A stretch of 27,973 bases of DNA, taken from the IMG/VR virus record IMGVR_UViG_3300010376_000107, positions 1-27,973 of that record. One strand, written 5' to 3'. This document shows positions 1 through 25,493 of this stretch, piece by piece. This stretch comes from a virus. Lineage: Duplodnaviria > Caudoviricetes. The position numbers and the translations under genes are program-made. Within the stretch, counting starts at the first letter, position 1, and each line of letters starts with the position of its first letter. A model generated the notes under the pieces. It was not told the origin of the DNA, searched no databases, and saw nothing but the letters and a program-made list of their open reading frames with translations.

Positions 1-55
1 CGCCCGCGAAGGCGGCGAGGCCGGCGAGCGCGAGCAGGATCCGACGAGCGATCAC
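1..55 (-). CDS. 5' end of a gene running off the window, encoding a probable signal peptide (MIARRILLALAGLAAFAG...)
   Basis: GTG at 55-53 overlaps the TGA of the upstream gene (an in-frame ATG at 58 is an alternative start). Basic n-region followed by a hydrophobic h-region. Confidence 0.6.
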   Translation of the reverse strand, partial: MIARRILLALAGLAAFAG

Positions 56-366
56 CATTTCACCCCCGAAAACTTGTGGCCGGACGAGGTCGCGTTGACG
101 CTCGTGGCGGTGGTCTGCCCGACGATCGCGGTCCAGGTCTGCCCCGCCTCGAGGCGGAACGTCGAGCCGTTCCCGGCGAGCGTCGCCGGGTTGCCCGTCG
201 GGTCGACGTAGAGCGGCTCGGTGTTGGCGAGCCCCTGGTCGGCCGGCGCCACTGGGTTCTGGATGAAACCGCCGCCGATCCCGCCGGGGGTCGCGACGAT
301 CGCGTTGACGGGCGAGCCGCCCACCGCGACCGCCGTGGCGTCGGCCGGGACCGGAGTGACGGCCAT
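52..366 (-). CDS. 104-aa putative virion protein, paralogous to the N-terminal domain of 2616..3689
   Basis: ORF track. Shares DQG..EPLYVD..G..GQ..GQTT..SVNA..SGHxFS with that domain. Confidence 0.85.
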   Translation of the reverse strand: MAVTPVPADATAVAVGGSPVNAIVATPGGIGGGFIQNPVAPADQGLANTEPLYVDPTGNPATLAGNGSTFRLEAGQTWTAIVGQTTATSVNATSSGHKFSGVKW

Positions 367-367
367 C

Positions 368-1756
368 TCACGCCGCCTTTCTGGCGAAGCCGAGCGGAAA
401 ATTGTCGTTCGCGCCCATGATCTCGCGCCAGAACGCGCAACCGTTGGACGTGACGCTGGTCAGCGTACCGCCGTCTGGCCAGGTGCTGTTCCCCAGGGAA
501 GAACCCTTGACGGTGTAAGTCGGCGTGGCGGTGCCGGGGAAGTCGATCCACTGGGAAATCGCCGCCGGCACCCGCGGCGCCGCCGTCGCGGCGCTATCGT
601 TGATCGAGCGAGCGACCGGCCCGACCTGAGTCGTCCCGCGGAACATGGCGATCTGGGCGGTTTGACCGACGCCGCCCATGGCGATGCTTCCGCTCGCGGA
701 GAACTCAATCGCGTTCGCCGCGGAAGAAAGCGTCGGGGAGGTCGTCACCGGGGTCGAGGTATAGCTCCCGCTCGCGAGAGTGGTCGGCGACGTCGTGCAG
801 ACCTGGATAGCGGGCCCGACTTGAGTGCCAGGGCGCGCGACGCCGGGGCCGAAAAGTTGTACGAAATTCGGCGTCGTCCAATTTCCGGCGGTCGTCAGCG
901 TCGTGTACTCGACGTAACCGATATAACGAACGGCGACCCCAGACAGCGACGAGGCGTTGCAGAAGATCGACTGCGTGGCCGACCCGCCGCCCGTGCCGGC
1001 CCCGCTCGACTGAAGCGTTCCTTCGTTGACCGCGAGGATGGGGGTGCTCCCCGAGGCGGACGCGGCGTTGTAGGCGCACACCTGAACCGTGCCGGCGTTG
1101 TCCGCGGCGAGGAGCCACAGCCGGCACGGGCTTGCGGAGACGCAACCCATCGTGTTGCCGCCGCTGATCGTGAACGAGGCCGCCGAGGTGACCGTGCGCC
1201 AGACGACACCGCCGTTCGCGGAGGTCGCGTTGCGAAACGGCACGTAGATCGGGGAGAGCGCGCTCGGGTTTCCGCCGGTCTGCCCGGAGAGCATCGAGCA
1301 GGTCAGCGCGTTCGAGACGGCGGTGCAGGACAGCGAGAGGTTGATCGGCGACGAGAAACCGTTCTGCGCCTGGACCGTCCCCAGGTTGAGGTTCGGCCCG
1401 GTCAGCTCGAACACCGTGCCGTCGAACGTGAACTCGTTGATCTGACCGGTGACGATCTCGCCGCCCGAGAGCGCCGCGAGGCCGGCCGTCGTCGGCTTGC
1501 TTACCGTCGTCGCGACGAGGCTGTTCACCTGCAGGGTGACGGGGCCGCTCGCGTTGGTCGACGACATGAGCACGCGCAGCGGCACGCCCTTCAGGTCCGC
1601 GAGCTGGCTCACGTTCGGCACGATGACCTGGATCGCGGTCCCCGACCCGGTGGAGGAGGCCACGTAGGTTTGCGGCGCGTCGAACTGCGCCGCGGCCGGG
1701 ACGACCGCGGCGAGGAGGACGGCGAGGAGGGCGAGGGCGCGGGTGATCCTGGTCAC
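368..1756 (-). CDS. Tail fibre / receptor-binding-like protein with N-terminal signal peptide (462 aa)
   Basis: Start re-called to GTG at 1756, which overlaps the upstream stop (GTGA). Begins MTRITRALALLAVLLAAVVPAAA|QFD. S/T/G-rich beta sequence with a fibre-type segment (TNASGPVTLQVNSL...LSGGEIVTGQINEFTFDGTVFEL). Lies in the fibre position of the module. Confidence 0.8.
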   Translation of the reverse strand: MTRITRALALLAVLLAAVVPAAAQFDAPQTYVASSTGSGTAIQVIVPNVSQLADLKGVPLRVLMSSTNASGPVTLQVNSLVATTVSKPTTAGLAALSGGEIVTGQINEFTFDGTVFELTGPNLNLGTVQAQNGFSSPINLSLSCTAVSNALTCSMLSGQTGGNPSALSPIYVPFRNATSANGGVVWRTVTSAASFTISGGNTMGCVSASPCRLWLLAADNAGTVQVCAYNAASASGSTPILAVNEGTLQSSGAGTGGGSATQSIFCNASSLSGVAVRYIGYVEYTTLTTAGNWTTPNFVQLFGPGVARPGTQVGPAIQVCTTSPTTLASGSYTSTPVTTSPTLSSAANAIEFSASGSIAMGGVGQTAQIAMFRGTTQVGPVARSINDSAATAAPRVPAAISQWIDFPGTATPTYTVKGSSLGNSTWPDGGTLTSVTSNGCAFWREIMGANDNFPLGFARKAA

Positions 1757-2385
1757 TGCTTGAAGCTCCACGTGTTGGCGGCCGCGACCCATTGCAGGAT
1801 CGCGACCTGACCGTTGACGCTCAGGGTGGCGTTGCCGGGCAGGCCGGCGATGCTCTGTCCCGCGTTCGGGACGACCGTGATCGGGAACTGCTGGAAGTTG
1901 CGCGCGCCGTCCGAGAGCGTGACGACCTGGCCGTTCGCGGGCCCCGGGGGCAACGTCACCTGCGTGGCGGCAGGCGCCACGGTGCGGACGAACATCACGG
2001 CGCCGTCGCTGTTGCTCAGGATGATCGGCGTCGAGGTCGTGACCTGACGAGCCGGGAAAGCCTGCCCCTGCTGGAGGAACGACGACGAGGTGCCGGCGGT
2101 CATCTGGTGGGCGAAGATGTCGCCCGCGAGGTAGCTCTGGGCGGTCGTCCCCTCCTGGCCGCGGACCATGGTGGTCACGTTGTCGCCCGAGATGGCGGTG
2201 ACGAGCACGATCTCCTTGATGAGCCCCGTCGCGGCGTCGATCAGGGTCGCGAGGAACCCCTGGCCCGGGATCGGGTTCGGGAATTTCACCCCCGTGCCGG
2301 CGGCGAGCGCGCAGTTCGTCTGGGTCGAGTTGATCGCGCCGGCGAGCGTCGACGAGGCGTCGTTCGTGAACAGGAGGATCGTCAT
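1753..2385 (-). CDS. Proximal tail fibre / baseplate-anchoring protein (210 aa)
   Basis: N-terminal LFTNDASSTLAGAI...EIVLVTAISGD..TMVRGQEGTTA is typical of fibre N-termini. C-terminal VTLPPGPANGQVVTLSD...PITVVPN..QSI resembles a fibre repeat. Follows the baseplate wedge genes. Confidence 0.8.
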   Translation of the reverse strand: MTILLFTNDASSTLAGAINSTQTNCALAAGTGVKFPNPIPGQGFLATLIDAATGLIKEIVLVTAISGDNVTTMVRGQEGTTAQSYLAGDIFAHQMTAGTSSSFLQQGQAFPARQVTTSTPIILSNSDGAVMFVRTVAPAATQVTLPPGPANGQVVTLSDGARNFQQFPITVVPNAGQSIAGLPGNATLSVNGQVAILQWVAAANTWSFKQ

Positions 2386-2597
2386 CGCCTGCCAAGCCCC
2401 TTCTGCAGCGCCTCGATAGACGCCGAGTCCCCGCGCCTACAGGCGTCCATGTACCCCGAGATCGGGTCGGCCGCCGAATCGACCCCACCGATGGTGCCCT
2501 TGTTCTTGCTCGCGTAAAAGACCCTCTCGCCTTCTTTGGCGCCGTACTCGCGCTCCATGGCGCCCTTGATCTTCTCGCCTTTCGCCGTCAGCGGCAT
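2382..2597 (-). CDS. Small basic phage protein (71 aa, MPLTAKGEKIKGAM...FYASKNKG)
   Basis: GGAGG RBS; stop overlaps the next start (ATGA). The N-terminal ~40 aa resemble a small conserved phage hypothetical domain. Confidence 0.8.
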   Translation of the reverse strand: MPLTAKGEKIKGAMEREYGAKEGERVFYASKNKGTIGGVDSAADPISGYMDACRRGDSASIEALQKGLGRR

Positions 2598-2615: not shown

Positions 2616-3689
2616 TTAGATCGTCACGACCACGTTCGAGAATTGGAACGGGAGCTGGAGCGCGCCCGACTGGAGAGCCTCCTGCAGGATCGCCGCGTTC
2701 GGCAGCGGGGTCAGCGCCTGCGTCGTGACCGCGGCCTGGTTGAACACGCGGCTGTTGAAGGTCCATGTGTCGTACACCATGCTCTTGCCGAGCTTGCCGA
2801 CCTTGTTGACCAGCGTGATGTTGACCTGGTTGGCGACCCCGAAGGTGATGCTCACCTGGTAGGTCTGGTCGACGTTCGGCGCGGCGCCGTTCGCCCCGTT
2901 GATGAAGCGCATGATTCGCCGCTTCAAAAACGCGATGTTGAACACGCGCCCGTCGCCCTTCCAGAAATTCCACGTGATGATGCGCTTGAAGATGTCGTCG
3001 GTCGTGACGGTCACGTTCTGCGCGCCGACCACCTTGTCGCCGTCGAAGGGGATCGAGTTGAAGGTCCACGTGTTGTAGGGGCCGACGTTGCGGTTGCGCC
3101 CGCTCGAGAGCGACGGCCGGACGATCCCGTACAAGCCCTGCGCGACCCAGTCGAGGAGCGGCCCGGAGATCGAGGCGTCGGTGTAGATCGGCAGGGGCGT
3201 GTCGTTGAGCCAGTCGAGGTATTCCTGCGCGATCTGATTGTAGCTCGCCACGAACGCCTGCAGGTCGTCGTCGTCCTGGTACTGCTGATAGAGGTACGAC
3301 GGGATGATTTCGAGGACGGTCGTCTGCTCGGCCGGCGGGAACGGCCCGGGCTGCGGCGTCGGCGGAAATTGCGTCGGCGGCTGCAGGACGATCGCGCTGA
3401 ACTGGTGGCCCGAGGTCCTCGCGTTGACGCTCACGTTCGTCGTCTGCCCCGCCGGCACGACGAACCACTGCCCGGGCTGGACCTCGTAGGTGGTCGCCGT
3501 CTCGGCGAGCGCCGCCGGCCCGACGAGGTCGACGTAGAGCGGCTCGACCGGGCTCACGCCCTGGTCGGCGACGTTCGACGGGTTGACGATCAGGCCGCCC
3601 GCGACGCCGCCGAAGATGGCGACGACGGGCGAGCCCCCGGTGGTCACCACCGTGACGGCCGCGCGGTACGGGACTATCGGCGCGGTCAT
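2616..3689 (-). CDS. Baseplate wedge protein (DUF2612/gpI-like) with an extra N-terminal domain
   Basis: Immediately downstream of baseplate J. Motifs YLYQQYQDDDDLQAFV, LLDWVAQGLYGIVRP and TDDIFKRIITWNFWKGDG. Confidence 0.8.
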   Translation of the reverse strand: MTAPIVPYRAAVTVVTTGGSPVVAIFGGVAGGLIVNPSNVADQGVSPVEPLYVDLVGPAALAETATTYEVQPGQWFVVPAGQTTNVSVNARTSGHQFSAIVLQPPTQFPPTPQPGPFPPAEQTTVLEIIPSYLYQQYQDDDDLQAFVASYNQIAQEYLDWLNDTPLPIYTDASISGPLLDWVAQGLYGIVRPSLSSGRNRNVGPYNTWTFNSIPFDGDKVVGAQNVTVTTDDIFKRIITWNFWKGDGRVFNIAFLKRRIMRFINGANGAAPNVDQTYQVSITFGVANQVNITLVNKVGKLGKSMVYDTWTFNSRVFNQAAVTTQALTPLPNAAILQEALQSGALQLPFQFSNVVVTI

Positions 3690-3693
3690 CCGC

Positions 3694-5112
3694 TCACCCC
3701 TGCGTGATCGTGACGCCGGCCGAGGTCGCGAAGAAATACGACTCAGGGTCGCCCGCGATGACGCCCGTGCCGGCGCTCGGCGGCGTCGATATCCCGTTGA
3801 TGCTGACCGCGAACACCATGCGGGTGAGCAGCTGCGCCGGGATCACGCTCTCGATCGACTGCTGGAAAACGGATTGGAGCTCGAACAGGTTGATCGGCTG
3901 GCCGACCGCGATCGAGTTGACGTAGTCGACCAGGGCCGGCGCGCCGAGCTGCGAGACGGCGGCGGCGCTCACGAAGTTGGTGGCGATCGTGTTCCAGGTG
4001 ACCGAGACGGTCACCGTCTGCTGCGGCGGGCTCACGAAGCGCACCGCGTACGTGTCCGGGTAATTGTTGATGTTCACCGTCACGTTGCGCAGGACCGGCG
4101 AGAGCGTGCCGCCGCCGGTGTAGGCGCCCGAGCTGGTCGTGTTGGTCCCGGTGGTGAAAGTCTTCTGCCCGGTGACGGTGATCGTGAGCGGCACGCCGTT
4201 GATGCCGCTGATCCCGGTCGCCCCGGTGATCGTCGCGACCTGCCCGGTCGCGTAGTTGTGGTTCTTGTCGGTCGTGACGACGCCCGGGTTCGCGTTGGTG
4301 ATGGACACCACGTTGAGCGTCGACCCGACGAGGTTGTTGATGTCGAACAGCGCTTCGAAGATCGCGAGCGCGACCTGGTACTGGTCGCCGCCGCCGACGA
4401 GGACCTCCCAGAACCCGCCGCTCTGCTGCTGCACCGAAACGAGGCGCGGCTGGACGCCCGGCACCCGGGCGAGCGCGGTCTTCAGGTTCGTCGTCATGCC
4501 CTGGGAGATCGCGAGGCCCGCCTGCAGCACGCTCGCGCGGTAGTCGGCCGGGTCCTGCGGGCCGGTCGCGGGCGTGCCCGAGGTCGGGTTGTTCACCGAG
4601 AGGGTGATCCCCGTCGGTACCGACGTGACGAGCTGCTGAACGGTGCCCGACGGGATCGCCCAGGCGCCCGAGAGGACCGCGATCGCGAGCACGGGCAGGC
4701 TCGAGCCGCCCGCGCCGATGATCGCCGGCGCCTGCGTCACGTACTGGTAGGTGCCGTCCGAGACGACGAAGCCCTGCGAGACGGTGAACCCGACCGAGCC
4801 GCTGAACACCACGGGCACGCTCGTGTTCGTCGCCTGCCCCTGGGGGACACCGTAGATGTTGCCGAGCTGGACGAGGAGGAACTCGTTCGCGCCGAACGGG
4901 GTGAGCGAGTTGACGAGCTCCACCTTGGCGGCGTCGATGAGCGCGAGCGCCCCCACGTCGGTCGACGAGATGTCCTCGACGAGCGAGCCGGGGAGGTTCG
5001 CCGTGTAGCCGGGGTTCGTCGCCGCCACGTTGGCGAGCAGCGCGGCCAGCAGGGTGGCCGGCGGGGTCGGCTGGAGGCCCGCGGCCGTCACGACGGTCGG
5101 GATCTGTGTCAT
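3694..5112 (-). CDS. Baseplate J/gp47-like protein (472 aa)
   Basis: Start re-called to ATG 5112 (ATGA overlap). Motifs LPGSLVEDISST, LGNIYGVPQG.ATNTSV.VVFSG, DYRASVLQAG and VGGGDQYQVALAIF. Confidence 0.88.
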   Translation of the reverse strand: MTQIPTVVTAAGLQPTPPATLLAALLANVAATNPGYTANLPGSLVEDISSTDVGALALIDAAKVELVNSLTPFGANEFLLVQLGNIYGVPQGQATNTSVPVVFSGSVGFTVSQGFVVSDGTYQYVTQAPAIIGAGGSSLPVLAIAVLSGAWAIPSGTVQQLVTSVPTGITLSVNNPTSGTPATGPQDPADYRASVLQAGLAISQGMTTNLKTALARVPGVQPRLVSVQQQSGGFWEVLVGGGDQYQVALAIFEALFDINNLVGSTLNVVSITNANPGVVTTDKNHNYATGQVATITGATGISGINGVPLTITVTGQKTFTTGTNTTSSGAYTGGGTLSPVLRNVTVNINNYPDTYAVRFVSPPQQTVTVSVTWNTIATNFVSAAAVSQLGAPALVDYVNSIAVGQPINLFELQSVFQQSIESVIPAQLLTRMVFAVSINGISTPPSAGTGVIAGDPESYFFATSAGVTITQG

Positions 5113-6199: not shown

Positions 6200-7207
6200 T
6201 CAATCCCCCTGACCCACGCCGCCGTTCTGCGCCGCGTCGATGATCGTGCACCACGAAGCCGCGTCGGGCTGGCGCGAGCTCCCCACGTGACGGAGCTGGA
6301 TGATGGTGAACGTCCCCTGGAACGCGCTCGAGGAGCGGAACTGCGGGAACGACTCGGCCGTCACCGTCGCCTGCGCCGGCGGGAGCGTGATCTGACCGCC
6401 CACCTGCAGGTCGCCGCGCATGACGACCTTGGCCTGGACGGTCTGCAGGCCGAGCCACGTCGGCTGACCGATCAGGTCGGTGAAGGCGATCGCGGTCGGC
6501 CCCGCTCCGCCGCCGCTCGACTGCGAGCCGTCGTACACGCTGATCGTCGTCCCCGACACGGTCACGTTGACGCCGATGTAGGTCGGCGAGTTGTTCAGCT
6601 TCTGGCTCAGGTCCTTGATGTAGGAGGCGTACTGCCCCATCGTCTCGTAGTAGCCGACGTCGTCGCGCGGCAGCGAGAGGTTCGCGCCGATGTTCACGTT
6701 GACGGTGTAATTCGGGAAGGCGGTCCGCAGCGCCTGCTGCACCGCGTTCGACAGCGGCGTCCCCTGTTTCCAGTTGTGCACGATGTTCGCGACCTGCCCG
6801 CCGGGCGGCGCACCCTGGCCGACCTGCTGCCCGCTCGCGCCCCCCGGGGTGCCGAACGGCGGCGCGATGATGAGGTCGAGAGTCTGGTCGGTGCCGATCC
6901 AGTTGGCGAACGCCGGGAAGATCGTGCCCTGCACGAGGAGGCCCGCCTGCGCGGGGTTCGCGAGCGGCAGGCCGCGCGCCATGCCGCCGAACACCTTCAC
7001 ACTCTTGTTGTTGAGGTCCTTGGTCTGCGCGACCTGTTGCAGCGGGACGCCCCACACTCGCACCCAGGCGGCGCCGACCGGCGTGGCGTAGGGCGCGACG
7101 GGAACGTCCATCTCGACCTGCAGGGCGGCGGGGTTCGTCGAGCCGTCGTCGTTGAGGCTCGTGAACACCGTGCCGCCGTCGTCGATGTCGATCTTGTAGT
7201 AGCGCAC
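6200..7207 (-). CDS. Baseplate hub protein (335 aa)
   Basis: Position upstream of the spike. Motifs GGMARGLPLANPAQAGLL, DLIGQPTW and RHVGSSRQPD. Confidence 0.8.
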   Translation of the reverse strand: MRYYKIDIDDGGTVFTSLNDDGSTNPAALQVEMDVPVAPYATPVGAAWVRVWGVPLQQVAQTKDLNNKSVKVFGGMARGLPLANPAQAGLLVQGTIFPAFANWIGTDQTLDLIIAPPFGTPGGASGQQVGQGAPPGGQVANIVHNWKQGTPLSNAVQQALRTAFPNYTVNVNIGANLSLPRDDVGYYETMGQYASYIKDLSQKLNNSPTYIGVNVTVSGTTISVYDGSQSSGGGAGPTAIAFTDLIGQPTWLGLQTVQAKVVMRGDLQVGGQITLPPAQATVTAESFPQFRSSSAFQGTFTIIQLRHVGSSRQPDAASWCTIIDAAQNGGVGQGD

Positions 7208-13899: not shown

Positions 13900-14958
13900 T
13901 TAGTCGACGGCGGCGAGCGGGCCGACGACGAACGTCGGGATGCAGGACGCGATGAGCTGCGTGCCCACCCGGCGCGAGGTCGACTGGTAGTAGCTGACCT
14001 CGATCTCGATCTCCTTGCGCTGCGCGAGCGTGAAGAACTCGACCTGCCCCTGCTTGGCGTCGCGCGGGATCGGCATGTTCATGAGGCCGATGTTGTCCGT
14101 CTCGAGGCTGTACTGGTCGACGGCCGCCATCAGGTTGAGCACGTCCGCGTTGCGCAGCCCGAACGTCGTGAGCTTGACGAGGTCGCGCGCGAGTTGGGTC
14201 TGGCCGAGGTTCGCGTCGAACAGCGGCGCCGCCTGCAGGGCGCGCGTCGCCTCGGGGGCGACGTGGACCACCACGTAGGGCGGCCGCTGGTTGTCGGGGA
14301 CCGCCATCGAGGGGAAGAACGGCGCCGTGACCGGGAAGAACCCCGTGGGCGACGCGTACCCCGGGATCTGCAGCCACATCGGCAGGCTGTTCGACACCAC
14401 GGGGCCGATCGCGTTGAACTGGAGGGGCGAGTCGACGATCTGCGTCGCCATGTTCGAGGTGATGCTCGCCCCGAGGTAGTGATACAGCGGGCCCGCCTGC
14501 TGATAGAGGTTCTTGCGCGCCGAGAAGGCGTAGCGCCGGTTGTGAGGCTCGCTCGCCGGCAGCTGCGCGATCCACATCGTCTGCGGGTCGATCGAGTTGA
14601 AGAAGTCGAGCGGGATCTCGGACGTGAACACCACGTCGTTCGCGGCCGCGTTCGCCTCCTCGCTCTGGTAGCGGCGCGTCGCGAAATGCAGCGACCCGGT
14701 CGCGACGATCGTGTCGGCCGCCACGACGGTCGGGCTCTTGTCGAACAGCCAGTCGTCGTAGGGGCCGGCCGCGTCGAAGATCGCGCCGCCGGTGACGAGG
14801 TCGGCCTTCACCCAGAACACGAACCCGTCGACCGGCAGGACCACGCGCCGGTACTGCGTGAACGTGACCTGCTGGTTGAGCGAGATCGCCTCGACGCCCG
14901 CGGCGAGGTCGGCGCCGAGCGGCGTCCTAGCGGCGGTCGCTTCGGCGGCGCTGGTCAC
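13900..14958 (-). CDS. Head-closure / tail-completion protein (352 aa)
   Basis: Start re-called to GTG 14958 (GTGA overlap). YRRVVLPVDGFVFWVK and VVSNSLPMWL..PDNQRPPYVVVHV motifs; position before the sheath. Confidence 0.7.
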   Translation of the reverse strand: MTSAAEATAARTPLGADLAAGVEAISLNQQVTFTQYRRVVLPVDGFVFWVKADLVTGGAIFDAAGPYDDWLFDKSPTVVAADTIVATGSLHFATRRYQSEEANAAANDVVFTSEIPLDFFNSIDPQTMWIAQLPASEPHNRRYAFSARKNLYQQAGPLYHYLGASITSNMATQIVDSPLQFNAIGPVVSNSLPMWLQIPGYASPTGFFPVTAPFFPSMAVPDNQRPPYVVVHVAPEATRALQAAPLFDANLGQTQLARDLVKLTTFGLRNADVLNLMAAVDQYSLETDNIGLMNMPIPRDAKQGQVEFFTLAQRKEIEIEVSYYQSTSRRVGTQLIASCIPTFVVGPLAAVD

Positions 14959-15638
14959 GGCGCCCCCGTGGCGAGCTGCGCGAGGCCGGCCCGGTCGTAC
15001 TCGGCCCACACCTGGCCGAGCCACGTGAAGACCTTGCCCCGCAGGGTGCGCGACTCGTGCTTGCCGGCGAACTCCGAGAACGTCCACGCGTCGCGGTCGA
15101 TGAGGCCCGCGGCCTTGTCGTCCAGGTGGGGGATCGTCACCGCGGAGAGCTGATCGAGCACGGAGCTGACCTGCGGGTCGTCGGCCCACTGCAGGTAGTC
15201 CGCCGTGCTCGACACGTAATTCTTGACCGGGAAATGGTGCGCCCGGCCGATCGACCGGACGACCTCGAAAATCTCGCCGAGCGACTGCTGCGTCGGTCCG
15301 AGCACGTGCAGCACCGCGAGATTGACGGCGCCGTTCTTCACGTCCTCGAGCAGGCGGACCTCGTCGAGCATCCGCAGGAGGGGCGAGAGCATTCCGGCCC
15401 GCACGTCGATCAGGATGTTGCCCTCGACCTTGTCGAACACCGCCATCTGCCCGTCGATGGTTTCCAGGTTGACGACCTGCGCGAGCGGGTGGAACCGCTT
15501 GAGCCCGCCCTTCGGGTGCTCGGTGTCGATGTCCTCGCGCACGACGCCCTTGCCTTCGAGGTACTCGCCCAACGTCCTCGCCACCGTGGTCTTGCCGGTG
15601 CCGCCCTTGTCGGCGCCGACGATGAAGATCGAACCCAT
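14955..15638 (-). CDS. ParA/MinD-like P-loop ATPase (227 aa; alternative GTG start at 15713)
   Basis: Deviant Walker A DKGGTGKTT, DIDTE (Walker A') and ILIDVRAG (Walker B). GGGAGG RBS precedes both candidate starts. Confidence 0.85.
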   Translation of the reverse strand: MGSIFIVGADKGGTGKTTVARTLGEYLEGKGVVREDIDTEHPKGGLKRFHPLAQVVNLETIDGQMAVFDKVEGNILIDVRAGMLSPLLRMLDEVRLLEDVKNGAVNLAVLHVLGPTQQSLGEIFEVVRSIGRAHHFPVKNYVSSTADYLQWADDPQVSSVLDQLSAVTIPHLDDKAAGLIDRDAWTFSEFAGKHESRTLRGKVFTWLGQVWAEYDRAGLAQLATGAP

Positions 15639-16461: not shown

Positions 16462-16830
16462 TCACTTCGACGGGCACACCGACAGCTGCGTGATGCGCAG
16501 CGTCCCGGTCGCGGTGCCCGCGAGGGCGGCGACCCAGGTGTTCGGCCCGATGTTCAGGCACACCCCGTTCGCCGGCAGAGCGGGGCTCGTGTTCGTCGCC
16601 GTCACAGTGTTGTCGACGCCGAACTTGTAGAAAATCTCGTTCGTCGAGGCGCCGACGCCGTACTGGAGCATGACGAACGGGTAGGACGACGGCGCGCCGG
16701 TGAGCTGCACGTTCGCGCTCGTCGTGGTCGCCGAGATCGAGAAATTCCCGCCGATCGCCTGGGCCTCGGCCGGGGCGGCGAGCGCGGCCGCCGCCAGGGC
16801 GGCGAGCGCGAGGGAACGCAGAAACCTCAT
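16462..16830 (-). CDS. Signal-peptide-bearing beta-rich protein (122 aa)
   Basis: Start re-called to ATG 16830 with GAGGAGAGG RBS. Begins MRFLRSLALAALAAAALAAPAEA|QAIG; two Cys in the mature part. Confidence 0.82.
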   Translation of the reverse strand: MRFLRSLALAALAAAALAAPAEAQAIGGNFSISATTTSANVQLTGAPSSYPFVMLQYGVGASTNEIFYKFGVDNTVTATNTSPALPANGVCLNIGPNTWVAALAGTATGTLRITQLSVCPSK

Positions 16831-20673: not shown

Positions 20674-21624
20674 TCAGGCGTCCTGGCGCGTGACGATGCG
20701 CCCGACCTTCCGCGCCGGCCGGCTGAGGCCGGCGATGAACGTGTTCTTGCCGAAGAACATGGTCACGCGCCCCCCGGTGGCGGGGTTGACGCGGTGGACC
20801 TCGCGCATCTGACCCGGCTGCAGGTCGGTCGGCGCGTTCGCCGCCGTCACCGAGTCGGCGTAGATCTGCCGCTCGGCGATCGTGAAGGCGGCGCCGTCCG
20901 CGGCGACCACGCCGAGGTTGACGTCCTTCCACGCCGGGCTGTGCGTCTTGAGCTTGTTCGCGACGCGCAGGCGGTAGGCGGCGAGGCTCTCGCCGACGAG
21001 GGGGCGCGGGGCCCGCTCGCCGAAGGCGCACATCACGTCGTCGGCGCGCGACTGAGCGTCGGCGAGGTCGTGGTAGTCCTTGTCGGAGAGCTGCATGGGC
21101 ACCAGGCGCTCGACCCGGGCGAGGCGGCCGAGGACGTCGGCGCCGGCCGAATCTTTCTTGGCGTCTTCTTTGCCTTCGTCGTCGTCGTCGCGCTTGCGGC
21201 CGTCGCCGCGCGCGGGTTCCTTCTTGTCAGGTTCCTCGGCGTCGCGGCGCTTGGCGTCTTTTTTGTCGGCTGCCTTCTCGTCGTCGCCGTCCTCGTCGTC
21301 GTCTTTCTTGCGGGAGGCGTCGTCTCGCGCCTTGTCGTCGCGGGCCTTGTCGTCCCGGTGCTTGTCGTCGCGCTTCGCGGCGTCGTCGCGAGCCTTGTCC
21401 TTCGCCTCCATGGCGTCCATGCGATCGTGCAGGTTTTTCATGGAGTCCTTGACCGACCCGAGCCCGGCGAGGATCGTGTCGAGCTTGTCGCCCGCGTCGG
21501 CGTCGGCCTTCTTGTCGGCCTTGTCCCCGCCCTCGTCTTCGCCTTTCTTCGGGGGAAACTCGTCTTTGCGCTTCGCCGCGTCCTCGCGCTTCTCGTCCGC
21601 GTCGGCTCGCACTGCATCGGCCAT
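20674..21624 (-). CDS. Nested in-frame scaffold protein from an internal start (316 aa)
   Basis: GCGGGAGACTTAGCC-ATG at 21624 is in frame, and A/T-ending codons increase locally around this start. Confidence 0.6.
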   Translation of the reverse strand: MADAVRADADEKREDAAKRKDEFPPKKGEDEGGDKADKKADADAGDKLDTILAGLGSVKDSMKNLHDRMDAMEAKDKARDDAAKRDDKHRDDKARDDKARDDASRKKDDDEDGDDEKAADKKDAKRRDAEEPDKKEPARGDGRKRDDDDEGKEDAKKDSAGADVLGRLARVERLVPMQLSDKDYHDLADAQSRADDVMCAFGERAPRPLVGESLAAYRLRVANKLKTHSPAWKDVNLGVVAADGAAFTIAERQIYADSVTAANAPTDLQPGQMREVHRVNPATGGRVTMFFGKNTFIAGLSRPARKVGRIVTRQDA

Positions 21625-22683
21625 GGCTAAGTCTCCCGCTGCCTCTGTCCGCACCCCAGAGGGTGCTTTGCCCTTGTCCCAGACGCCGACCTCGCAGACC
21701 GCGAGGTGATCCAGGAGCGATGGTTTGCCCTCGATCAACAGGGTGGAGCCGTCCTCGAGCTTCACCTGGTCGTTCACGCTCGGATCGCGGAACACGACCG
21801 CCGGGGAGGTCGACAGCTGCTCGGTCTCCATCAGGCGACCAGCCGCCTCGTCGTAAATCTTGGCGACCCCCCAGACCTCGTCGCCCTTGATGTAGGGCAA
21901 CAGGATCGTGCCGATGACCCGATCGGCGAACTCTTTCGAGTTGAGCGTAGCACGAGTCGGGTGCTCCCACACAACGGGTAGCCCGTTGCACCGCGCGAGA
22001 AACTCGGGGTTGAGGTAGTGCTCGGGCCGCCGGTAGGCGTACTCGTCGAGCTTCTTGCGGTAGGCCGTGCCGGTCCCGGTCACGCGCAGGTCGAACAGCC
22101 ACAGCGTCTCGTAGCGCTGCGGCGAGGCGAGCTCCCCCGCGGCGATCAGGCGCGCGACACCCAGCTCGTCGAGCGCGAGGCGCGCGAGCGCGACGCGGCA
22201 GCCGGGGTGCAGAGGCTCGGGCGGCTGGTCGGGCGGCGCCCACGCGTAGCCCACGTGCTCGTCGTTCACCTCGGGGTCGAACGGTTTCATGCCGCGCGCC
22301 GCGAACGTGGTGAAGTCGACGGGCTCGACCTCCGGGGCCTGCGCGGGGGCGGTCGGCGGCGCCACAGGGGCGGCTGCTGGATTGCCGTTCGCAGCCTCGA
22401 TCTGCGCCCTCGCCGTCGCCTCGACCGACGCAGGCGGGGCCGAGATCACCGCCCCCGGGGGATCGGCTTTCACGCGGCGCGTCCACGGCAGCAGGTCGCC
22501 CTTGAGCGCGACGCCCGTCTCTTCCTTGAACTCGCGCCGCGCCGCCTGCTCGGGCGTCTCGCCGTCCTCGACGCGCCCCCCGGGCAGGCACCACTCGCCC
22601 GGGTGGTCGGCCGTCGGCGCGCGCTTGAGGAACAGCACGCGGCCGTTGACCATGCAGAGGACGCCGGCGCCGCGGATCGTCAT
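20674..22683 (-). CDS. NUDIX hydrolase - DUF2213-type prohead protease - scaffold fusion (669 aa)
   Basis: Complete Nudix box GGRVEDGETPEQAARREFKEETGV. Protease-like region GLPVVWEHP..LSTSPAV..LLDHLAVC. D/K/R-rich C-terminal scaffold. Confidence 0.88.
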   Translation of the reverse strand: MTIRGAGVLCMVNGRVLFLKRAPTADHPGEWCLPGGRVEDGETPEQAARREFKEETGVALKGDLLPWTRRVKADPPGAVISAPPASVEATARAQIEAANGNPAAAPVAPPTAPAQAPEVEPVDFTTFAARGMKPFDPEVNDEHVGYAWAPPDQPPEPLHPGCRVALARLALDELGVARLIAAGELASPQRYETLWLFDLRVTGTGTAYRKKLDEYAYRRPEHYLNPEFLARCNGLPVVWEHPTRATLNSKEFADRVIGTILLPYIKGDEVWGVAKIYDEAAGRLMETEQLSTSPAVVFRDPSVNDQVKLEDGSTLLIEGKPSLLDHLAVCEVGVWDKGKAPSGVRTEAAGDLAMADAVRADADEKREDAAKRKDEFPPKKGEDEGGDKADKKADADAGDKLDTILAGLGSVKDSMKNLHDRMDAMEAKDKARDDAAKRDDKHRDDKARDDKARDDASRKKDDDEDGDDEKAADKKDAKRRDAEEPDKKEPARGDGRKRDDDDEGKEDAKKDSAGADVLGRLARVERLVPMQLSDKDYHDLADAQSRADDVMCAFGERAPRPLVGESLAAYRLRVANKLKTHSPAWKDVNLGVVAADGAAFTIAERQIYADSVTAANAPTDLQPGQMREVHRVNPATGGRVTMFFGKNTFIAGLSRPARKVGRIVTRQDA
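21170..21610 (-). repeat. Low-complexity K/R-x-D-[D/A] repeats in the scaffold (e.g. RDDKARDDKARDD)
   Basis: Imperfect 15-bp tandem units at about 21320-21400, within a wider D/K/R-rich tract. Confidence 0.8.
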
Positions 22684-25238: not shown

Positions 25239-25493
25239 ATGTGCTTCTCGTGGCAATGGCTCGGGCACCTGCTGGTGTGGCTCGTGATCGTGGTCGCGAT
25301 CATCACCATCATCCGCATCCTGGTCCCCTGGCTGCTTTCCTTGGCCGGGGGCGTCCCGGCCCCGATCATGGCCATCATCAACGTGGTGCTATGGGCCATC
25401 GTGGCGATCGCGTGCATCTGGATCGTCGTCGACCTGTTGTCCTGCCTGACCTCCGGGGGCGCCGGGTTCAGCCTCGCGCCGCCACACCGCTAG
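25239..25493 (+). CDS. Two-TM small membrane protein on the opposite strand (84 aa)
   Basis: CGGAGG RBS, two long hydrophobic helices and G/C-ending codons. Its stop overlaps the stop of the convergent gene. Confidence 0.8.
   Translation: MCFSWQWLGHLLVWLVIVVAIITIIRILVPWLLSLAGGVPAPIMAIINVVLWAIVAIACIWIVVDLLSCLTSGGAGFSLAPPHR

Follow-up and report, generated by a model that had tools for sequence, protein, structure and literature searches.

A split tail fibre with a signal-peptide-type leader in a contractile-tailed soil phage points to probable fibre maturation outside the cytoplasm

Gene content of the locus

The stretch of DNA analysed here (the window; 27,973 bases) carries on its minus strand genes for portal, head morphogenesis, capsid, sheath, hub, baseplate wedge and a tape measure that contains a transglycosylase domain, and is, to judge from this gene content, the structural operon of a contractile-tailed phage (myovirus). 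Its capsid protein shares 54-60% identity with those of cultured Pantoea, Klebsiella, Yersinia and Shewanella phages, with Klebsiella phage RothD and its relatives at about 60%. The stretch was found in six sequencing runs, all of them soil metagenomes. A host within Hyphomicrobiales is likely because the anchor-fibre module described below also sits on contigs of one Xanthobacteraceae and one Rhizobiales metagenome-assembled genome, bearing in mind that bins can misplace phage contigs. After the myovirus baseplate genes comes a fibre gene (368-1756, minus strand) whose product, according to the initial annotation, might be exported, disulfide-bonded in the periplasm and either docked on particles at lysis or used as a free receptor-masking protein. 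The features at this end of the window are:

1-55, minus strand: first part of a further gene, truncated at the window end, whose N-terminus is leader-like; the slot in relatives holds a 440-1238-aa Cys-rich signal-peptide protein
52-366, minus strand: leaderless 104-aa protein, kept 3' of the fibre in split and fused forms and homologous to the N-terminal domain of the 2616-3689 product
368-1756, minus strand: distal tail-fibre subunit (462 aa) made up of leader, D1, middle domain, TNF-like tip and tag-like tail
371-412, minus strand: tail ANDNFPLGFARKAA (residues 449-462), a tmRNA (ssrA)-tag look-alike with pLDDT under 50
413-814, minus strand: C-terminal TNF/C1q-like beta sandwich (residues 315-448), carrying Cys 320 and 440
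827-1369, minus strand: beta domain in the middle of the protein (about residues 130-310), which contains three Cys pairs, 144/153, 205/211 and 227/266
1391-1687, minus strand: D1 fibre module (residues 24-122) without Cys, directly behind the anchor where fibres are fused and leaderless; residues 24-29 and 47-56 are the predicted docking face
1688-1756, minus strand: signal-peptide-type leader (residues 1-23) with two Arg, a hydrophobic core and AAA ahead of Q; helix at 3-17 in the model
1753-2385, minus strand: leaderless anchor/adaptor (210 aa) with a baseplate-binding fibre N-domain (1-104) and an XD1-like domain (106-210), the predicted dock
1766-1769, minus strand: GGAG Shine-Dalgarno-like motif, 9 nt before the coupled GTG and within the anchor's last Trp-Ser codons
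2616-5112, minus strand: baseplate wedge genes (3694-5112, Baseplate_J-like; 2616-3689), which set the fibre slot

An assembly slip at the junction between anchor stop and fibre start was ruled out by a contig of a second assembly that spans 1272-2700 gap-free with five differing letters, from a run that is possibly the window's own sample.

Other genes of the operon are listed here as observations in their own right. The 104-aa protein (52-366) and the wedge protein of 2616-3689 are both leaderless, occur also in fused-fibre phages and could be further side-fibre sockets. In two relatives the slot of the 1-55 gene is filled by a leader protein that belongs to no Pfam or PHROG family and contains as many as 22 Cys (L002:11739-15455 and L003:11665-15354), and the L003 protein terminates in an ANDN..KAA tail. 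Within the head-completion block, a 122-aa gene (16462-16830, minus strand) with a leader and two Cys possibly encodes an exported head or neck decoration; it had no PHROG and no cultured match, and its Atlas neighbours were unnamed viral clusters. A NUDIX domain is fused ahead of a DUF2213-like head-maturation protein (20674-22683, minus strand), an arrangement retained in the complete genomes G001 and G002, and a ParA/MinD-like ATPase gene lies amid neck and tail genes (14955-15638, minus strand). An 84-aa hydrophobic gene occupies the opposite strand within the head block (25239-25493, plus strand), with a homologue at a like place in G001, and a 71-aa gene between wedge and anchor (2382-2597, minus strand) has homologues in G001 and G002 that instead precede the head-maturation gene.

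A fibre divided between two genes

The 368-1756 product is identified as a fibre by its slot after the baseplate genes and by its homology to fibre domains of virions. Its D1 module matches the gp47 tail fibre of PDB 9B45 (residues 234-365, E 2.8e-8) in a sequence search of solved structures, its middle domain has a tblastn match to gp15 of Pseudomonas phage AH02, annotated as a major tropism determinant (E 3e-5), and its C-terminal sandwich is likely a trimeric lectin-type tip. No Pfam match, S74 included, was found for this protein. An N-terminal baseplate-anchoring domain of its own is absent, and sits, as initially proposed, in the separate leaderless product of 1753-2385, residues 1-105 of which match tail-fibre PHROGs (phrog_8469, E 6e-20) and the N-domain of which matches the solved tail fibre 8JOV (E 1.9e-17). 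By its domain content, the 368-1756 product is the distal fibre subunit only. The C-domain of the anchor matches residues 104-169 of CBA120 TSP4 (E 1.6e-5) and T4-type gp10 only at E 0.04-0.3. That stretch of TSP4 is XD1, which the published account terms a spacer, the known docks being XD2 and XD3 (PMC8825819); no XD2/XD3 module follows the XD1-matching stretch in the anchor sequence.

Viral contigs were scanned with an anchor alignment, and the counts that follow refer to the best 80 of 338 relatives. Among these 80, D1 was fused behind the anchor N-domain in one leaderless chain in at least 17 proteins, beginning at residue 108-138 in 15 of the 17. Several such fused fibres have the neighbours that the split fibre has in the window, namely the wedge gene on one side and the small downstream gene on the other. 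In the window group, the anchor ends at about 210 residues with the extra C-domain, and the leader sits where D1 begins. Within the same best 80 of 338, anchors with an XD1-type C-domain were followed by a leader gene at 11 of 12 loci in the script's count, which became 13 of 13 once two starts had been read by eye, against none of 41 loci with anchors lacking this domain, three of the 13 having belonged to the profile-building set and the group probably being one lineage. The partner fibre always has D1 and its distal part is exchanged, as in the L142 leader protein with a Pfam Collar domain. Comparison of these genes shows the window fibre to be, at the level of sequence, a split version of the single leaderless anchor-plus-D1 chain of sister phages, with an anchor that appears to have gained a gp10/TSP4-like XD1 domain.

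The arrangement recurs in the complete genomes G001 and G002, where all long fibre-like genes after the baseplate carry leaders. At three near-identical loci (L228-L230), a 110-aa gene lies between anchor and fibre (about 6320-6660); it encodes 4-5 Cys and a hydrophobic N-terminal stretch. We found no cultured phage with this anchor form, the 116 matching phage records matching the anchor N-domain only.

Start codon and leader

The fibre gene is a 462-codon frame that begins (M)TRITRALALLAVLLAAVVPAAA, followed directly by QFD, and reads as the basic n-region, hydrophobic core and AxA site already described for it. Its GTG (1756-1754) overlaps the TGA of the anchor gene as GTGA, with the GGAG motif 9 nt upstream, in agreement with the translational coupling claimed earlier. 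At the 15 loci examined, GGAG or GAGG lay ahead of the leader start in every case, and an ATGA or GTGA stop-start overlap was present in 12. The leader start is taken as the true N-terminus because the overlap and the Shine-Dalgarno motif back it; a start downstream of the hydrophobic stretch, which would have overturned the initial reading, received no support, as no such motif preceded in-frame starts at codons 9-55 in the 15 loci.

That reading also depended on homologues keeping the leader, and 31 of 35 did so (protein search, best 7,999 candidates scored; leaders read by eye), the other four being two fragments and two proteins with other N-termini. We aligned the leaders of 39 D1-bearing homologue rows of our own choosing, in which Ala occupied position -1 in 39, Ala position -3 in 32 and Gln position +1 in 38. 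Leaders were 20-42 residues long, all 39 contained Lys or Arg, 35 lacked Asp and Glu, and the first 18 mature residues had a net charge of 0 or -1 in all 39. The pattern is thus conserved across homologues although the leader sequence varies. Small residues at -3 and -1 and an uncharged mature start form the signal-peptidase pattern, and the active site of that enzyme faces the periplasm. The sequence traits of Sec export and signal peptidase I cleavage are present (basic n-region, uncharged h-region, AxA), with a twin-Arg motif in none of the 39 rows and a lipobox pattern in one.

Leaders were called with our own heuristic script for n-, h- and c-regions. It flagged 2 of 38 called window genes and, in related loci, 1 of 53 core virion gene homologues; two complete relatives, with 184 called genes between them, gave 13 flags, four of which looked false. 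As a sequence pattern, the leader of the fibre exceeds chance. Supported tree branches place at least seven gains or losses of the leader within the fibre family.

Leader-bearing genes were also seen elsewhere. In loci with other tail gene sets (L013, L015, L020, L023, L025, L028 and L044), the fibre region contains series of genes that are rich in Cys and carry leaders; L023 has up to seven of them within about 9 kb. A leader-bearing 268-271-aa gene without a Pfam match follows the lysis genes in two relatives (L002:18523-19338 and L003:17360-18166), its product presumably resembling a rhizobial outer-membrane protein. Leader-like Cys-containing genes lie upstream of the wedge gene at L188:3548-6167 and L149:3874-6204, and L188 combines these with a fused leaderless fibre.

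Distribution of cysteines

The eight Cys claimed for the fibre are present (residues 144, 153, 205, 211, 227, 266, 320 and 440), and include the two closely spaced pairs CTAVSNALTC and CVSASPC. For comparison across the family, 157 hits less 24 (self, truncated and fragments) were merged at 70% identity to give 101 members, which the script divided into 57 with and 44 without a leader and which became 61 and 40 after four were moved by eye. C205 and C211 were both present in 44 of the 61 leader forms and in none of the 40 leaderless forms (41 of 57 against 3 of 44 before the by-eye move), leaving 17 of 61 leader forms without this pair. The median number of core Cys was six in leader forms compared to two in leaderless forms; even core Cys counts failed to separate the groups (47/61 against 28/40, zeros counted). 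The columns 144/153, 205/211 and 227/266 each co-occur (Jaccard 1.0, 0.98 and 0.94, respectively), and Cys 320 and 440, carried by the first and the last tip strand, are private to the window protein.

A quick tree recovered a supported clade of 48 members, made up of 45 leader forms (44 with C205 and C211) and three leaderless rows, which are nested at two places and have lost both Cys. The co-variation of leader and Cys pairs foreseen in the initial annotation therefore stands as a count (44/61 against 0/40), and falls short of significance in a tree-aware test because only about two of seven independent pairs are informative, none pointing the opposite way. Other leader proteins of these loci had even Cys counts in 75 of 93 cases, against 140 of 361 leaderless proteins.

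The Cys pairs back export without proving it. On their own such pairs need no export, because extensive virion disulfides are known in Agrobacterium phage Milano, where they crosslink capsid, collar and sheath (PMC10491603). Milano resembles the present case in its alphaproteobacterial myophage setting; its disulfides were seen in virion parts, and those of the window fibre are suggested by its Cys pairs. It differs in that the core virion proteins of the window contain few Cys (three in the capsid protein, one each in sheath and tube, none in the wedge proteins) and Cys pairs are confined to leader-bearing proteins, and a Milano-type disulfide-crosslinked virion was rejected on these counts.

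Predicted docking of fibre and anchor

Three copies of anchor residues 98-210 and three of fibre residues 24-128 were modelled as a complex. The predicted complex scored 0.86, against 0.02 for the best of three controls, in a 3+3 job that differs from what the tool was calibrated on and may be reproducing an end-on, trimer-on-trimer fibre geometry that is already known; in that calibration, the complex-score mark was reached by 116 of 157 solved pairs and 2 of 215 mismatched pairs. The runs shared at least 75% of contacts, and partner pLDDT was 87 or above. In the model the fibre interface comprises residues 24-26, 28-29 and 47-56, the part that cleavage would free. Conservation at the predicted interface did not exceed that of the remaining residues in either domain (p 0.37 and 0.94). 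The mature fibre N-terminus is accordingly only predicted, from modelling, to dock on the XD1-like domain of the anchor, which is the partnership that the initial annotation had put up for modelling.

A C-terminal tail resembling the tmRNA tag

One feature absent from the initial annotation is the tmRNA-tag-like tail. The tmRNA tag is ANDNYAPVALAA in both genomes that hold the anchor-fibre module, and that of Caulobacter is AANDNFAEEFAVAA (PMC1233412); SspB hands such tags to ClpXP in Escherichia coli and Caulobacter (PMC8138137, PMC6386880). The window tail shares with this tag of the likely host an ANDN head, a free disordered C-terminus and an Ala-Ala end, which are sequence traits of a degron. 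It differs in being gene-encoded, in standing on a leader-bearing protein and in having 10 residues after ANDN; in 25 of 35 family tails there are 7-8 (the host tag has 8), with varying synonymous codons.

By a loose pattern, ANDN-type tails were found in 35 of 61 leader forms and none of 40 leaderless forms, and were missing in 26 of the 61. The strict pattern AND[ND] occurred in 26 of 101 family members, compared to about 0.0004 per protein by chance. Endings are Gly in 30 of the 35 tails and AA in four, most relatives having MVG or another Gly ending. Outside the fibre family the tail was present in 3 of 112 leader proteins and none of 598 others, and in G001 and G002 the motif is confined to leader-bearing fibres. 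A tree-aware test of tail against leader was not significant, with about one of seven independent pairs informative and none opposite. We infer from these patterns that the tail may serve to clear precursor that has not been exported. Alternatively, such a tail could be read by a tail-specific protease in the periplasm.

Assembly route and alternatives

Overall, the initial interpretation is supported, and the checks run here turned up none of the findings that would have overturned it. We consider it fairly probable that the window encodes a split distal fibre which is exported through Sec, folds and acquires disulfides in the periplasm, and docks on the anchor of finished particles at lysis; while the architecture is read from the genes, the route is one that we infer. 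Fibre translation is coupled behind the anchor gene, the anchor joining a baseplate-binding to an XD1-like domain and the fibre a leader to D1 and an exchangeable distal part, compared to one leaderless chain in the sisters. By homology, anchor trimers would join the baseplate in the cytoplasm. Signal peptidase I would cut the exported fibre after Ala23, DsbA-type oxidation would close four Cys pairs and the tip would trimerise in the periplasm. Following holin and endolysin action, particles would meet fibres inside the outer membrane or just after release, and three D1 modules are predicted to sit on three XD1-like domains via Gln24-Phe25-Asp26, residues 28-29 and residues 47-56. The ANDN..AA tail would meanwhile pass cytoplasmic precursor to SspB-ClpXP, and its removal would mean that unoxidised fibre therefore cannot occupy the docks. 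The wider proposition, that a widespread group of Hyphomicrobiales soil phages has periplasm-built tips, a docking face made by cleavage, an XD1 socket filled at lysis and ssrA-like quality control, is offered tentatively and with slightly less than even confidence.

The leader could instead be a membrane tether, or be removed on the cytoplasmic side, so that the fibre docks in or at the cytoplasm and its disulfides form by air oxidation after lysis. All docking evidence fits this course too, Milano virions are disulfide-rich, and a cytoplasmic degron is easier to use on a protein that spends time in the cytoplasm. We nevertheless regard it as unlikely, given the invariant Ala at -1, the near-invariant small residue at -3 and the uncharged mature start of the signal-peptidase pattern, Cys enrichment and even Cys counts that track the leader amid Cys-poor core virion proteins, and the loss of the Cys pair in leaderless rows nested within the leader clade.

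Less likely again is an exported, non-virion decoy or adhesin derived from a fibre, which would mask the receptor, block superinfection or alter the lysogen surface. Exported fibre-like adhesins are known, as described for the MAT proteins of Bdellovibrio (PMC10769870), the fibre tip resembles bacterial lectins, and relatives encode the leader-bearing, membrane-protein-like gene after their lysis genes. The fibre gene, however, belongs to a late structural operon, has its translation coupled to that of the anchor and takes the slot of the fused fibre, its product co-occurs with the extra domain of the anchor and is predicted to bind it, and no long leaderless fibre candidate was seen in G001 or G002. 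Of the two options first put forward, these points favour the one in which the fibre docks on particles over receptor masking by a free protein.

Skipping of the leader, by an internal start or an anchor frameshift that yields a leaderless or fused cytoplasmic fibre with an incidental hydrophobic stretch, is very improbable: the fibre frame is open upstream to 2488 and its residues 32, 46 and 49 are encoded by GTG, but these GTGs lack a Shine-Dalgarno motif, the 15 loci have no common internal start (four have none whatever), no slippery heptamer precedes the anchor stop, some loci have a gap or an extra gene between anchor and fibre, and it is the leader pattern that is conserved and not its sequence.

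Relation to known systems

Sec export with docking at lysis, our preferred reading, has partial parallels. The XD adaptors (T4 gp9/gp10-gp11-gp12 and the N-terminal part of CBA120 TSP4; PDB 7REJ, 7RFO and 7RFV) likewise combine a trimeric anchor and an XD-family domain with a separate trimeric fibre, predicted here to bind end-on by its N-terminal face. They differ in that the window match is XD1 without XD2 or XD3 and, as far as the available text on CBA120 extends, in that only the window partner has a leader, Cys pairs and a tag-like tail (PMC8825819). The one-chain leaderless fibres and tailspikes of RothD and its relatives and of the uncultured L166, L194 and L195 share the baseplate genes, the slot and the anchor N-domain, the latter three also sharing D1 and the small downstream gene with the window; they differ in having anchor and distal part in one polypeptide without a leader or an XD1-like domain.

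Amongst bacterial proteins, MAT fibres are described as a surface family with a conserved domain of ~130 aa after a signal peptide, with or without S74 (PMC10769870). They are bacterial surface genes of a predator, whereas the window fibre is a gene of a phage structural operon, and a Bdellovibrio bacteriovorus MAT fibre was rejected on this ground, S74 being absent and no MAT chain appearing among the sequence matches to solved structures. The pIII protein of filamentous phages, which sits in the virion and binds the receptor, has a cleavable signal peptide and disulfides formed in the periplasm, and by analogy the window fibre may likewise be an adsorption protein matured via Sec and the periplasm. 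Inoviruses, however, are put together at the membrane and leave the cell by extrusion instead of lysis, pIII remaining membrane-anchored, whereas the window phage is a contractile-tailed dsDNA phage. In sum, parts resemble XD adaptors, MAT fibres, pIII and the ssrA tag, and the combination fits none of these. A literature search on signal peptides in tail fibres and on ANDN with SspB, with most subscription journals outside its range, found neither feature for tailed phages.

Implications

Tailed phages are taken to complete their particles in the cytoplasm. A Sec and periplasm route for the fibre tip, if true, would bring a second compartment and a late step of joining into tailed-phage assembly, which would then span two compartments and have a quality control of its own. 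Virion assembly would come to include the export and disulfide machinery of the host, which could become a target of defence, and the route would account for the making and swapping of Cys-stabilised lectin tips. Annotation pipelines may misfile such fibres as exported host-modifying cargo. Ultimately, the idea is directly testable, even in a laboratory strain without the phage, as the locus pinpoints where the fibre is split, a dock of 105 residues, the face that would dock and a putative degron.
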